From: Candidatus Falkowbacteria bacterium
GTDB taxonomy: Bacteria; Patescibacteriota; Patescibacteriia; CAIXNZ01
Assembly (NCBI GenBank): GCA_016927685.1
Contig: JAFGMD010000004.1
Location: 1-53,450 of the forward strand
Length of the DNA: 53,450 nucleotides
Direction of reading: 5' to 3'
The stretch's first letter is position 1, and each line of letters starts with the position of its first letter. Below the pieces are notes generated by a model. That model did no database searches. It was not told the origin of the DNA and was given only the letters and a program-made list of their open reading frames with translations. The position numbers were made by a program, and so were the translations under genes. Positions 5,160 through 42,088 of this stretch are shown here, piece by piece.

Positions 5160-5585
5160 TTATTTATGCCATTTGAAATCTTGCGTAAAGAAGATTCTTC
5201 TTATTTTTAAACAGAGCTCATTCATGGAAAATTCTATCTGGGCGCCGATTTTGTTAGCAAATTTCATAACCCACTTATGTCTTTGGGGGTTAAACGCGGA
5301 GTAAAGAATTACTTGAGCATTTGGATAAAGCTTTTTAGCTTCTTCTATTACTTCAAATCCTTTTCTTTTTTTCATGTCCCTTAACGGAACGTCAAGCATG
5401 CTAATAATAAGATCAAAATTCCTGCCTTCTGGAATTTTGCTTACATCGCACGAATAAGTCATATTCACTCTGGTTGGCCCGAGTTTATTTTTCACAGCGT
5501 CTTCACCAACAAAACCGATATTCAATAGCATGCCAGCTATTGTGTCTGTAATCACAAAGATGCTAATCTGCTTTTCCTGTTTCAT
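5160..5585 (-). CDS. Hypothetical protein, degenerate receiver-like fold, paralogue 1 (141 aa)
   Basis: AGGAGG SD; FDLIISMLD / VILYS / KIGAQIEF pattern; colinear with the neighbouring gene. Confidence 0.7.
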   Translation of the reverse strand: MKQEKQISIFVITDTIAGMLLNIGFVGEDAVKNKLGPTRVNMTYSCDVSKIPEGRNFDLIISMLDVPLRDMKKRKGFEVIEEAKKLYPNAQVILYSAFNPQRHKWVMKFANKIGAQIEFSMNELCLKIRRIFFTQDFKWHK

Positions 5586-5652
5586 TTTCCCTCCTTTTCG
5601 TTATTAAAGAACAACTTCAAATTATTCTTTTTTTATTTTTGCGAATAAGTAT

Positions 5653-6078
5653 TCAATCTTCATCCCATATAAAATCTTGTGGGAAAAAGAGTGTTCTTAC
5701 TTTTACGCAAAGAGATGCCGCGCAAAATTCTATTTGGGCGCCAATTTTTTTAGCATATTCCATAATTTCTTTATGATTTTTGGGGTTAATCCAGGAATAC
5801 AAGATAACCGGAACAGTAGGATGCATTTTTATAGCCCTGTTAATCATTTCCATGCGATGCTCATGAAACGAACGTTTGAGATTAGGAAGTACGCCGATAA
5901 TAAGGTCAAAATCGCTATCTTTGGGTATCTCCTGGATAAGGTTAACATGAATTAGGCGGACCCTTTTTTCACCAAGTTTGTTTCCCGCGCTTTCTTGACC
6001 GACAAAATTGACGTTTATGTCACTGCCTTGAAAAAGACCTCCTAACACTAAAATATTGATCGATCCATCTTGATTCAT
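5653..6078 (-). CDS. Hypothetical protein, degenerate receiver-like fold, paralogue 2 (141 aa)
   Basis: Start moved to ATG 6078 (GGAGG SD, promoter upstream), giving the same length as the paralogue; FDLIIGVLP / PVILYS / KIGAQIEF. Confidence 0.7.
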   Translation of the reverse strand: MNQDGSINILVLGGLFQGSDINVNFVGQESAGNKLGEKRVRLIHVNLIQEIPKDSDFDLIIGVLPNLKRSFHEHRMEMINRAIKMHPTVPVILYSWINPKNHKEIMEYAKKIGAQIEFCAASLCVKVRTLFFPQDFIWDED

Positions 6079-6118
6079 TTTTTCCTCCCTTCTTTTTTTA
6101 AAAGACCAATTTGTGTTG

Positions 6119-6147
6119 AGCTTATTAAAATAACTTAAAAAAGTCAA
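6119..6147 (-). promoter_or_regulatory. Sigma70-type promoter of the receiver-like pair
   Basis: TTGACT-N17-TAAGCT on the minus strand. Confidence 0.6.
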
Positions 6148-6157
6148 GAAATAACCC

Positions 6158-6186
6158 TTGAAAATAATAATAATTTTTGGTATACT
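6158..6186 (+). promoter_or_regulatory. Sigma70-type promoter of secA
   Basis: TTGAAA-N17-TATACT with TG extension. Confidence 0.7.
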
Positions 6187-6204
6187 TGATTTATTCTATA
6201 ATTA

Positions 6205-6324
6205 AAAGAGCTAAAAGTGCTAAAGGATAATAAGAGCTACAGGCTAAGAGGCAACTAGGTTATTAACCTTTTATCCTATAATCCTATGGCCCCTTTTTGC
6301 CTATAGTTCCTATAGCTCCTATAA
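6205..6324. repeat. Nonamer (CCTATAGCT-like) tandem/palindromic intergenic element, copy 1
   Basis: Purine-rich arm aagagcta..agagctacagg followed by cctataat/cctatagtt/cctatagct repeats; homologous to 9664-9817. Confidence 0.8.
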
Positions 6325-6327
6325 AAC

Positions 6328-39950: not shown

Positions 39951-40823
39951 ATGGATAATAAAAATATTTTTATTGTGGTTTTTGCTTATATTTTTAACAT
40001 TGGCTATATCGTCTTCATCTATTATTTTTTGCATAAGAATATTGTTAAAGATAAGTTTGTTTGGTGGGAAGCTTTAATAGTTTTTGTGGGAGGATTTATT
40101 GCCAGTTATTTAATGATATATGCTCATGGATATTATATTAAACAGATTGGTGGTTTAATTTATATTTTAGTTTTATTTGTAAGCTGTTATTTATTTATTG
40201 ATATTTTTGATTTGGTTGGTGAAAGAAGAGAGGCGGCTAAAGGTTCAATGGTAATTTTGAGCATTATTTTCATTGTTGGCTTAGGACTTTTGGCTCGGAA
40301 TGCTTATAACGATGGCAAAATATTCAACAAGCGTCAGCATCAACTTGAAGTCAAAGTCAAAGAAGTTAAAAAATTGAAGAAAGCCCTGGAGAAAAAAATA
40401 ATTGAAGTAAGAGACCTGAGATCTGAATACAGCAATTCTGTTGCAAATTTAAAAGGCGAAATTTTGGCAGAAAGCAGAGCCCATAATATTGTATATTATG
40501 ACCAAGCAATCAGAAATCAGCGTATCAGCTATGATTTGGTGCTTATTCAGCGCAAAAGAGCCTATATCATTAAACTTGATGAAATTTCAGTTCGCTTAAA
40601 AAGAGGCGTTGTGGAGCTGGAGTTCATACAGCGCCAGACAGAAGACGATGTCCGCTTGGTTGCAGTTCTTAAGAACGAGAAGGTTAATCAAATCATTTCA
40701 GATATCAATGAAGTTATTTCCAGGTACTTGCCTGATACATCAAAATTGGAAATAAATATTGATCCCTCTGAAATGCAGACACCTCAGCAGATATGGTATG
40801 AAATAATTCAAGAGAACCAATAA
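39951..40823 (+). CDS. TM-anchored helical (putative Snf7/PspA-like) family, paralogue C
   Basis: About 4 TM then AYNDGKIFNKRQH..RISYDLVLIQRKRAYIIKL..QTPQQIW. Confidence 0.82.
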   Translation: MDNKNIFIVVFAYIFNIGYIVFIYYFLHKNIVKDKFVWWEALIVFVGGFIASYLMIYAHGYYIKQIGGLIYILVLFVSCYLFIDIFDLVGERREAAKGSMVILSIIFIVGLGLLARNAYNDGKIFNKRQHQLEVKVKEVKKLKKALEKKIIEVRDLRSEYSNSVANLKGEILAESRAHNIVYYDQAIRNQRISYDLVLIQRKRAYIIKLDEISVRLKRGVVELEFIQRQTEDDVRLVAVLKNEKVNQIISDINEVISRYLPDTSKLEINIDPSEMQTPQQIWYEIIQENQ

Positions 40824-40838
40824 ATTTGTTTAAACCAT

Positions 40839-40872
40839 AAAGCCGTCGACTAAGTTTCGACGGCTTTTTTTT
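40839..40872 (+). terminator. Intrinsic terminator (AGCCG family)
   Basis: aaagccgtcga-ctaagtt-tcgacggcttttttt. Confidence 0.85.
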
Positions 40873-40873
40873 A

Positions 40874-40942
40874 TTGACATTAATTAGCAGATATGTTAAT
40901 TTAAGACATTAATTAAGATCTTTTAAAAATCTGTAAAGGAGG
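40874..40942 (+). promoter_or_regulatory. Promoter, boxA-like motif and SD of paralogue D
   Basis: TTGACA-N17-TAATTT (TG-extended); gatcttttaaaaat at 40917; AGGAGG at 40937. Confidence 0.7.
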
Positions 40943-40948
40943 TTTGTT

Positions 40949-41995
40949 ATGGATACAAGTCAAATCATAATTTTGTTTATTGCCCATTTAGCCACAATCG
41001 GTCTTCTCGTGTATGTAGCATATGCAGGGCTTTATAAATGGATTCTCGCTTATCGGAAAGTGTATTGGTGGGAATATATCATTGTTCTGATTTGGTGCAT
41101 GATATGCAGTAATATAATGGCGCTTATTTATGATTTTTATTGGAGCATTTTCTTCCTGATATTTTATTCTGTAATATTGGTACTCGGTTTTAAGCTTTTA
41201 GGGAAACGACAGATCGCTAAGCAACAGAAAATTGATAGCTACCTCAACCTTTCCATCCAAAGCGTAATATTGATAATCTTTGCGATTATTGTGGTTAACG
41301 GAGCTTATAATGACGGCAAGATATTTAATAAGCGCCAGCATGAACTCAAAACCAAGTTAAGAGAGGTTAAAGATTTAAAAAGCGCACTTACAGAAAAAAT
41401 TAGCGAGGTTAAGCAATTGAATAGTGAATACAGCGTTAGTATCAACGAATTGAAAGATGAGATAATCAGAGAAAAAGACGCTAAAAGTATAAAGAGCTTT
41501 AATCAGGCCATCGAAAATCAGAGGATAAACTATGACCTGGCCTTGATTCAGCGTAAAAAAGCTTATATCGTTAAGCTTGAAGAAATTTTGGCTCGTCTAA
41601 ACGAAGGAGTTATAGAGTTGGAATATGTACAACGCCAGAGTGAAGATGATGTGCGTTTGGTCCAGGTACTTAAAGATGAAGAAGCAAAAAAAATCATTGA
41701 AGGCATTAACGATGTAGTGGCGAAGTATCTTCCAGACGCAGCAAAACTGGAAATTAACATTGACCCTGAAGAAATGCAAACGCCCCAGCAAATTTGGGGT
41801 GAAATCGTTCAAACTGAAAATAAATCAAATCCAGAAGGAGAAGTTCAGGAAGGAGAAAGCGTCAGCGACCCTAATATCAAGCCAGATGATAATGAGACTA
41901 CTACTCAGGATAATAATCAGAATGATAATGCTGGCCAAAAAGGAACTGACATTGCTCCTAATGGAGATATGATTCGAAGTTTTGATCGTGAATAA
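40949..41995 (+). CDS. TM-anchored helical (putative Snf7/PspA-like) family, paralogue D, with acidic D/N/E tail
   Basis: About 4 TM then AYNDGKIFNKRQH..RINYDLALIQRKKAYIVKL..QTPQQIW plus a low-complexity tail. Confidence 0.82.
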   Translation: MDTSQIIILFIAHLATIGLLVYVAYAGLYKWILAYRKVYWWEYIIVLIWCMICSNIMALIYDFYWSIFFLIFYSVILVLGFKLLGKRQIAKQQKIDSYLNLSIQSVILIIFAIIVVNGAYNDGKIFNKRQHELKTKLREVKDLKSALTEKISEVKQLNSEYSVSINELKDEIIREKDAKSIKSFNQAIENQRINYDLALIQRKKAYIVKLEEILARLNEGVIELEYVQRQSEDDVRLVQVLKDEEAKKIIEGINDVVAKYLPDAAKLEINIDPEEMQTPQQIWGEIVQTENKSNPEGEVQEGESVSDPNIKPDDNETTTQDNNQNDNAGQKGTDIAPNGDMIRSFDRE

Positions 41996-41999
41996 TTTT

Positions 42000-42030
42000 A
42001 GCCGCCGAAAAAAATTCGGCGGCTTTTTTT
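42000..42030 (+). terminator. Intrinsic terminator (AGCCG family)
   Basis: agccgccgaa-aaaaa-ttcggcggctttttt. Confidence 0.85.
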
Positions 42031-42088
42031 ATTTTGTTTTTTGTAGTAAAATTAAAGCATAAGTGTTTTAAAAATATTATATAAATCT

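Follow-up and report, generated by a model that had tools for sequence, protein, structure and literature searches.

The question raised by this locus is whether the orphan genes of a small genome share a regulatory element in their leaders. The window analysed here is the whole 53,450-nt contig JAFGMD010000004.1 of a Candidatus Falkowbacteria bacterium, an entire contig (C9) of a 946-kb assembly (42 contigs, approximately 35% G+C, estimated completeness 97%). According to the original prediction, a boxA-like motif recurs between the promoter and the Shine–Dalgarno (SD) sequence of orphan genes in this window, and could define a regulon of recently acquired genes that uses Nus-type antitermination or a dedicated regulator. 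We found that the motif is real, oriented with the gene, promoter-proximal, restricted to leaders with an SD, conserved in the family, kept in orthologous leaders and similar to boxA. It marks the SD-type leader and not orphan status.

A motif of leaders with a Shine–Dalgarno sequence

Genes were taken from a simple call based on open reading frames (1,083 genes). A strong AAGGAGG-type SD preceded about one quarter of them, and the remaining three quarters had none. Pairing with the SD is possible since the 16S rRNA (C32:18381-19878) ends with ...CCAUCUCCUUUCU. The tail of this rRNA was GGACCAUCUCCUUUCU in place of the usual GAUCACCUCCUUUCU, as in all six family genomes read (the source genome and five relatives); with this tail, the final G of GGAGG would pair with U. 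An anti-SD is thus retained by the 16S rRNA even though most genes have no SD. Promoters were assigned by prediction. Upstream regions genome-wide showed the form TTGACA-N14-TG-N-TAnnnT with a spacer of 17 nt, and a promoter of this type was found for 192 genes. The leader, defined as the sequence between the -10 hexamer and the SD or the start codon, could be sorted for 191 of them (110 with SD and 81 without).

The consensus G-W-W-C-T-T-T-(A/G)-A-A-A was the top de novo motif of the promoter-to-start leaders of the genome. Expectation maximization (EM) on 171 leaders, started from 40 unrelated words, arrived at TTAGTTCTTTAAAA in 13 of the 15 best-scoring starts, with an occupancy of approximately 0.58 and an information content of 7.6 bits. 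The score was 749, compared to 428 at most over five shuffled leader sets. Individual sites were scored by a position weight matrix learned from the whole genome (11-column core). At 12 bits or more, 25 upstream-sense intergenic matches were counted genome-wide vs. 2 in the remaining intergenic strand-positions, which are equal to the upstream-sense set in size and AT-richness (binomial 6e-6), and 821 kb of coding DNA contained 13 matches in sense and 12 in antisense. The motif is therefore well above both shuffled leaders and equally AT-rich intergenic DNA, which disposes of the artefact that the original prediction had allowed for. The matrix was trained on part of the sites that it later scored; circularity is unlikely given how few matches equally AT-rich DNA contains and given that the motif was found again in other genomes (see below).

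The motif was strongly tied to the SD. Among promoter-bearing genes, a match of at least 10 bits was present in 34 of 110 leaders with SD and in 1 of 81 without it (Fisher 2e-8); in the lone exception, the start codon seems to be mis-called, an SD being present at a more upstream position. Approximately 44 SD genes (4% of all genes) had such a match within 100 nt of the start codon, so the claim that the motif is common to a class of genes stands, and 53 of the 70 upstream matches of at least 10 bits preceded SD genes. Upstream regions of SD-less genes in the window contained no match of at least 10 bits (maximum 8.7), and housekeeping leaders lacked the motif, as had been noticed earlier for core genes.

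In the aligned sites, the most informative positions were G1 (2.3 bits), C4 (2.0 bits), T5-T7, and A9-A11. Positions 2–3 were A or T, position 8 was most often A, with T or G less frequent, and a weak enrichment of A was present 4–5 nt 5' of the motif. G1 was located 6–35 nt past the -10 hexamer, mostly 8–16 nt, which puts it at roughly nucleotides 1–10 of the predicted transcript. The start codon usually followed 10–35 nt later, and in some leaders 50–80 nt later. In long leaders, the motif lay in the promoter-side first third in about seven cases out of ten, often with a GC-rich hairpin between the motif and the SD that ended at the SD. A weak preference for t-A-T-(C/T) approximately 5–7 nt past -10 hexamers was seen by eye throughout the genome (e.g., aaactATCaa, tagctATTct); it probably marks the transcription start.

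The promoters of the two classes were also different. Genes with an SD had -10 hexamers TAAGNT or TAATTT with the TG extension and TTGACA, while SD-less genes, mostly housekeeping, had TAAAAT, TATAAT, or TATACT and AT-rich leaders lacking an SD. Within the window, this comparison was made between promoters at 33401-33429, 38987-39014, and 40874-40902 and the promoter of the gene at 15152. The motif thus separates two kinds of expression signal in one organism, namely, promoter, motif, and strong SD vs. consensus -10 and an AT-rich SD-less leader.

Motif genes in the window are mostly without Pfam domains. Outside it, 11 of the 20 motif genes tested had clear ones, and the proposed regulon of orphan or recently acquired genes is not borne out. 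Domain-bearing motif genes encode aspartate carbamoyltransferase (pyrB), dihydroorotase (pyrC), PRPP synthetase (prs), and a PilB-type secretion ATPase, as well as an ABC exporter, a PhoH-PIN protein, an adenylate cyclase, an SF2 helicase, an Hpt protein, and a histidine phosphatase. Many motif genes are variable: the array at 33–42 kb is non-syntenic in relatives, and 4 of the 14 family genomes lack pyrB. In gamma-proteobacteria, prsA is one of the few recurrent boxA-associated genes (PMC5725501).

Several simpler identities of the motif were considered and rejected. Intergenic clusters of three or more copies were not found in the genome, which rules out a small RNA with several motif copies. 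Pairing with the anti-SD would give at most four weak pairs (CUUU vs. AAGG) at spacings from 2 to more than 100 nt, and was dismissed without a formal fold. A second -10 hexamer or sigma-dependent pause element (TTTAAAAT) was discarded as T follows AAAA in 13 of 37 sites, which equals background. For a palindromic operator, the left flank would have to be the reverse complement of the right one, and it is not.

Conservation in relatives and resemblance to boxA

Two relatives were sampled, 380 kb of G001 from the same genus and 400 kb of G012 from another genus of the family. In both, leaders with promoter and SD yielded GTTCTTTAAAAAAA by de novo EM. Matches of at least 10 bits were present in 11 of 45 SD leaders vs. 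0 of 33 SD-less leaders in G001, and in 4 of 32 vs. 0 of 23 in G012. The matrix of the source genome gave 26 upstream-sense matches vs. 5 in G001. The pattern GWWCTTTDAAA-N(0-30)-AGGAGG had 53 matches in 14 family genomes compared to 3 for the backward-read pattern, and none in three partial genomes of the sister family. A stricter pattern applied to 81 genomes of the class had 11 matches vs. 2 outside the source genome, spread across a few families.

Synteny of the array at 33–42 kb, upstream of the gene for an AddA-like helicase/nuclease (42695-45706), was not found in relatives, those of the same genus included, while the helicase itself is kept at 83–86% identity in the genus. The region is a hotspot of variable genes. 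Since the array is not conserved, pyrB was chosen for footprinting. In orthologous pyrB leaders of ten genomes from seven genera, the element is kept 7–20 nt past the promoter while flanks and spacing drift. Its variants are GAACTTTAAAAA, GTACTTTAAAAA, GAACATTGAAAA, GGTCTTTACAAAA, GGTCTTTAACATT, GTAATTTGACAAAA, and GTTTTTTTGACAAAA. The leader type and the type found ahead of rRNA genes (rrn type, core UUUGACAA) interchange at the same place (GAACTTTAAAAA/GAACATTGAAAA/GGTCTTTAACATT/GTAATTTGACAAAA). We consider these leaders the strongest evidence for selection on the motif. The pyrB promoter was itself conserved much better than other promoters, with a spacer run of 6–10 T followed by TGTTAAGGTCAG in all seven genera (C22:8100-8167 and orthologues); the T run with TGTTAAGGTCAG may be a nucleotide-sensing feature.

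The resemblance to boxA claimed earlier is upheld by sequence, orientation in sense, and location between predicted promoter and SD. The gamma-proteobacterial consensus is GYTCTTTAANA, with C4 and T6 functionally critical, and C4 is critical in the suhB boxA as well (PMC5725501). Our consensus agrees with it at G1, C4, T5-7, A8, A9, and A11, and C4 is the second most informative position of the leader motif. Exact matches to the boxA consensus are GTTCTTTAAAA at 39031, GCTCTTTAAAA on contig C16, and another one on contig C20. The leader variant GATCTTTGAAA is identical to the core of the Bacillus subtilis rrn boxA AUGAUCUUUGAAA (consensus GAUCUUUGAAA), a direct binding site of B. subtilis NusB (PMC13753749).

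The 16S leaders of the source genome and six family members share ...TTTGACAACTAAAAAGTGATAGAATC, and more distant genomes have TTTAACAATT or TTTGACAATT in the corresponding position. Family 16S leaders carry a conserved (N4)TTTGACAACTAAAAAG, which we take to be the rrn boxA of the lineage, written as (N4)TTTGACAACT. The core TTT(G/A)A(C/A)AA is common to the rrn boxA and the leader motif. Leader-type forms are GAACUUUAAAA and GUUCUUUAAAA, in contrast to the form UUCUUUGACAACU of the rrn leader. A genome-wide scan for the rrn type TTTGACAAYT was confounded by the -35 hexamer TTGACA. The gene for 23S rRNA was not detected in the assembly nor in the examined parts of the relatives, and the comparison with a 23S-leader boxA was therefore dropped. 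A fragmented second 16S-like stretch, in several colinear pieces, was seen at the end of contig C7 (C7:5919-7091). In the 16S leaders of five genomes (L006, L007, L008, L010, and L013), a T/C-rich arm TTTTTTCTTCTTT(AAAAA) located 5' of the rrn boxA forms a stem with GAAGAA(AA) further downstream, the two enclosing a variable insert. In the source genome and G001, this rrn-leader hairpin is deleted, and the arm is fused directly to TTTGACAAC.

Candidate readers and functions

NusB is encoded as a stand-alone protein of 144 aa (C4:3022-3456) in a row of rpmF-like, nusB, and rnc genes. NusG is encoded in a single copy (C28:3928-4470), and paralogues of NusG are lacking. S10 is assumed to be universal. 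We tentatively favour the reading in which the motif is a boxA-type RNA site for NusB–S10 that would be loaded early and would modulate elongation or SD-dependent translation. We infer from sequence comparison that the motif acts as RNA, that NusB–S10 is its reader, and that the outcome is regulatory. The putative signal, 5'-G-W-W-C-U-U-U-(A/G)-A-A-A-3', would usually start in approximately the first 10 nt of the predicted transcript, in genes with a TTGACA/TGnTAAgnT promoter of their own and a strong SD. NusB–S10 would read it on nascent RNA while tethered to RNA polymerase via NusG and NusA, as at the rrn leader. The elongation complex could be modified from the transcript start, becoming resistant to pausing or hairpins. 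As another output, initiation at the nearby SD could be linked to the pool of free NusB–S10, as in suhB-type boxA. With either output, SD-dependent genes would be controlled as a class by a single factor linked to growth. The translational output is favoured over the elongation output because of the restriction to SD leaders. In E. coli, the suhB boxA represses translation at distances of up to 100 nt, for which the complete set of Nus factors is required (PMC5725501). The rrn complex, in addition, moves NusA out of the exit channel (PMC13753749).

Several results weigh against this reading. The RNA-binding domain of Rho (PF07497) was found in none of the 14 family genomes, the source genome included, while nine control genomes were positive. 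Rho absence removes the only well-established purpose of boxA on mRNAs, and classical anti-Rho antitermination therefore cannot be the function. Read-through is not an obvious aim either, since motif genes are short units with their own terminators. The match to the rrn boxA of the lineage is partial: the common core and the interchange in pyrB leaders agree with it, whereas G1 and C4 are not conserved in rrn copies, which always have GACAAYT, and the leader motif insists on G1 and C4 and prefers AAAA. As the two consensus sequences differ, one reader for both kinds of motif is not guaranteed. Positions 2–3 are W-W in the leader motif vs. Y-T in canonical boxA. In G012, the matrix of the source genome gave 12 vs. 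12 matches at 10 bits, i.e., no upstream-sense enrichment. None of the Nus-factor genes carries the motif: nusB, which starts 11 nt after the upstream gene, lacks a separate leader, and in the leader of secE-nusG the match reaches only 8.7 bits and overlaps a terminator-like hairpin. The only RNA run from the same study, a metatranscriptome, had zero contigs on 33.0–42.2 kb, and the transcription starts are predictions since it has no reads on the locus.

Known boxA systems are similar to the leader motif in part. The rrn boxA of E. coli (UGCUCUUUAACA) and B. subtilis (AUGAUCUUUGAAA) has the same 11–12 nt outline G-N-N-C-UUU-(A/G)-A-N-A and is likewise located in sense downstream of a promoter, and some leader copies are identical to the E. 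coli- or B. subtilis-type consensus. The rrn element differs in belonging to a long untranslated RNA, compared to approximately 44 short protein-coding units here; conserved boxB or boxC partners are lacking, and Rho, the best-known target of the rrn complex, is absent. The suhB boxA is closer in being in an mRNA leader, approximately 50 nt or less from the start codon and near the SD. Its effect on translation tolerates variable spacing, the spacing is variable here as well, and prs is a target in both. Gamma-proteobacteria, however, have 0–7 boxA-associated genes per genome (PMC5725501) vs. approximately 44 in 0.95 Mb here, the output of suhB is Rho-dependent termination, impossible in this genome, and autoregulation of Nus genes is not the theme. 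The scale and context in this Rho-less genome are thus different from those in gamma-proteobacteria. As in lambda nut, where boxA is followed by the boxB hairpin, many long leaders have a GC-rich hairpin ending at the SD (e.g., GAACTTTAAAAtgGACCTGCGAAGCGGGTCaaggagg), but these hairpins vary in sequence, are absent from most short leaders, and are not followed by a long operon. We know of no N-like protein for these leaders.

Other explanations were weighed against the same evidence. A promoter-proximal NusG-dependent pause is improbable. W-W-C-T-T-T would be read as non-template DNA like the motif -11 TTNTTT -6 of B. subtilis and Mycobacterium tuberculosis, a T-rich hexamer with an invariant last TTT that is frequent in 5' leaders (PMC9963633), and RNA polymerase would be predicted to stall early in the leader, within the A run approximately 5–6 nt further on. 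The last three Ts, critical in B. subtilis, are the invariant core here, and the paused-complex scaffold was TTCTTT (PMC9963633); approximately 20% of B. subtilis NusG pauses are located in 5' leaders (PMC11602163). The sole NusG is closest to that of B. subtilis (8EHQ_G, E 8e-62) and keeps six of the seven non-template contact residues listed in PMC9963633 (Y11, W76, Y77, R80, N81, and T86; K97 is changed to T), and strand specificity and variable spacing fit a pause too. Such a pause would not explain G1 and the four As, which are as informative and as conserved as TTT, while the first two Ts are dispensable: positions 2–3 are A or T equally, and C-T-T-T is invariant. In the pyrB variants GAACATTGAAAA and GTAATTTGACAAAA, the T run is interrupted or the C is replaced, yet their outline is still that of boxA, and the pause motif, having no link to SD leaders, gives no reason for the restriction to them. 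We regard as quite improbable a DNA operator just past the start site that would repress or activate the whole class. Its location at approximately +2 to +20 of the predicted transcripts would be typical of repressor roadblocks, and it would be shared by approximately 44 promoters of one subtype (-10 TAAGNT or TAATTT). Against it, the motif is asymmetric and lacks a partner in either inverted or direct orientation, its spacing to the -10 hexamer (6–35 nt, up to approximately 100 nt) shows no helical phasing, it also occurs between cistrons without a promoter (5612-5601), and an orientation so strictly tied to that of the gene is more usual for signals in RNA. That the motif has no function, being a by-product of AT-rich leaders or of recently duplicated promoter-leader cassettes with paralogous genes, is hardly credible. 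It contains only about 8–10 bits of information, but shuffled leaders yield no comparable motif, strong matches are approximately 12-fold fewer in equally AT-rich intergenic DNA of the other strand or context, the genes that carry it are unrelated, and it persists in the pyrB leaders of seven genera despite changing flanks and spacing.

A site for another RNA-binding factor or for the ribosome, acting on translation or stability with a convergent likeness to boxA, is a rather unlikely alternative. The candidates are a cold-shock-domain protein, S1, and an epsilon-like enhancer. The near-exclusive association with SD leaders points to translation, a Csp homologue is encoded (C10:224-418), and the rrn boxA and the leader motif differ at the best-conserved positions. 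A possible parallel is the 'epsilon' leader of T7 gene 10 (UUAACUUUAAGAAGGAG), which resembles GAACUUUAAAAAAGGAGG closely, and B. subtilis CspB prefers GTCTTT(G/T). Yet in long leaders, the motif is near the promoter, 50–80 nt from the SD, which is unusual for an SD-linked enhancer, and homologues of Hfq and CsrA were not found in the genome. The sole complementarity to 16S rRNA, TTTAAAGTTC at nt 203-212 of the 5' domain, matches the motif variant GAACTTTAAA exactly and is kept in most family members, but it is altered in G001 of the same genus; it was judged to be due to chance, and the site presumably lies far from the mRNA path.

If NusB–S10 does read the motif, the Nus complex would be loaded at once, at the extreme 5' end of approximately 40 separately promoted, SD-dependent transcripts, which would tie their expression to the pool of free ribosomal protein and to ribosome biogenesis. 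The genes so controlled would be those for surface and membrane proteins, pili, and the synthesis of pyrimidines and PRPP. Nus factors would then act on mRNAs at the scale of a regulon and independently of Rho. We are doubtful about the wider proposal that NusB–S10 was recruited as a global mRNA regulator in this Rho-less family and, in patches, in the rest of the class. As a rule, boxA and the Nus factors are regarded as a device of rRNA operons and phages, with few mRNA targets and an output via Rho, whereas here a boxA-type signal is present on approximately 4% of the genes of a minimal genome without Rho. To our knowledge, almost no regulatory signals are known in bacteria of the candidate phyla radiation (CPR), and no paper on boxA-like leaders in them was found in the literature searched. 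A NusB–S10 site would therefore provide a handle on global regulation in uncultivated CPR bacteria. With another reader, the motif would be a new element of leaders whose sequence is defined clearly enough to be tested. Either way, it is of practical use in the annotation of promoters, leaders, and correct start codons.

Sites and cassettes in the window

All nine motif strings listed in the original prediction were present in the window, every one at its coordinate and strand. Seven of them scored 10.7–13.8 bits, and two were weak (11750-11737 and 35413). Rfam families and tRNAs were not found in the window. The motif sites were as follows.

33443-33454, plus strand: motif GTCCTTTAAAAT, 12.4 bits, 13 nt past the -10 and 7 nt before the SD, gene 33475-34182
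35413-35424, plus strand: motif GCTATTTGACAA, weak variant of rrn type, 6.5 bits, leader of the five-gene operon 35455-38937
39031-39043, plus strand: motif GTTCTTTAAAAAT, 13.8 bits, top score of the genome, gene 39061-39810
39919-39930, plus strand: motif GTACCTTAAAAT, 11.4 bits, gene 39951-40823
40917-40930, plus strand: motif GATCTTTTAAAAAT, 12.4 bits, gene 40949-41995
28189-28200, minus strand: motif GTTTTTTAAAAA, 11.3 bits, adjoining the SD at 28190-28184, gene 28179-27727
11737-11750, minus strand: motif GTACCTTTATAAAT, weak, 7.1 bits, 12 nt past the -10 (11767-11762)
6096-6107, minus strand: motif GGTCTTTTAAAA, 11.4 bits, gene 6078-5653
5601-5612, minus strand: motif GTTCTTTAATAA, 10.7 bits, in the 67-nt gap before gene 5585-5160, SD at 5596-5590

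The site at 39031 matches the boxA consensus GYTCTTTAANA exactly. The site at 35413, of rrn type TTTGACAA, has its core in common with the 16S-leader boxA TTTGACAAC, and the operon behind it encodes DnaJ-domain, VWA-like, transglutaminase-like, and other proteins. An intragenic second copy of GTTTTTTAAAAA was detected at 18420-18409.

The terminator-promoter-leader-SD cassette was also recovered with all its parts, namely, TTGACA-N17-TAnnnT with TG, AAGGAGG, and an upstream hairpin with a T-tract. Its signals had the following coordinates.

33401-33406 (-35 TTGACA), 33424-33429 (-10 TAAGTT), 33462-33468 (SD), plus strand: cassette of gene 33475-34182
35362-35367 (-35), 35385-35390 (-10), 35440-35446 (SD), plus strand: cassette of operon 35455-38937
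38987-38992 (-35), 39009-39014 (-10), 39049-39055 (SD), plus strand: cassette of gene 39061-39810
39863-39868 (-35), 39886-39891 (-10), 39938-39944 (SD), plus strand: cassette of gene 39951-40823
40874-40879 (-35), 40897-40902 (-10), 40936-40942 (SD), plus strand: cassette of gene 40949-41995
28238-28233 (-35), 28215-28210 (-10), minus strand: promoter of gene 28179-27727
6147-6142 (-35), 6124-6119 (-10), 6091-6084 (SD), minus strand: cassette of gene 6078-5653

33366-33391, strand not assigned: hairpin terminator that scores on the minus strand and is T-rich on either side; the -35 of the cassette of gene 33475-34182 follows after 10 nt
35331-35359: hairpin and T-tract terminator ahead of the cassette of operon 35455-38937
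38954-38980, plus strand: intrinsic terminator of operon 35455-38937, 7 nt before the -35 of the next cassette
39815-39844, plus strand: intrinsic terminator behind gene 39061-39810, followed by the next -35 after 19 nt
40839-40867, plus strand: intrinsic terminator behind gene 39951-40823, followed by the next -35 after 7 nt
42000-42024, plus strand: intrinsic terminator after gene 40949-41995, closing the array

The statement that the -35 hexamer begins just past the preceding terminator agrees with the close spacing observed, 3–19 nt from the stem. For the leader at 5612-5601, no promoter was recognisable in the 67-nt gap. Within the array, the CrtC/lipocalin-like gene 34258-35328 had neither SD nor motif, and the terminators flanking it scored on both strands.

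The weak motif at 11737-11750 is located approximately 100 nt before the start codon, ahead of genes 11637-11218 and 11205-9862 (the latter an Ig/PKD-domain protein), and a GC-rich hairpin CCCTCC...GGAGGG stands between it and the SD (11647-11642). This leader hairpin, GGCCCTCCTTCAC...GTTACGGAGGGC, directly precedes the SD (window 11640-11700, minus strand) and was also found on contig C29 upstream of gene 1159-1761. Its 5' arm CCCTCC mimics the anti-SD, and related hairpins (CCCGCCTNCGCTAAAGCTTCGGCGGGC) are present before the SD of several other genes.

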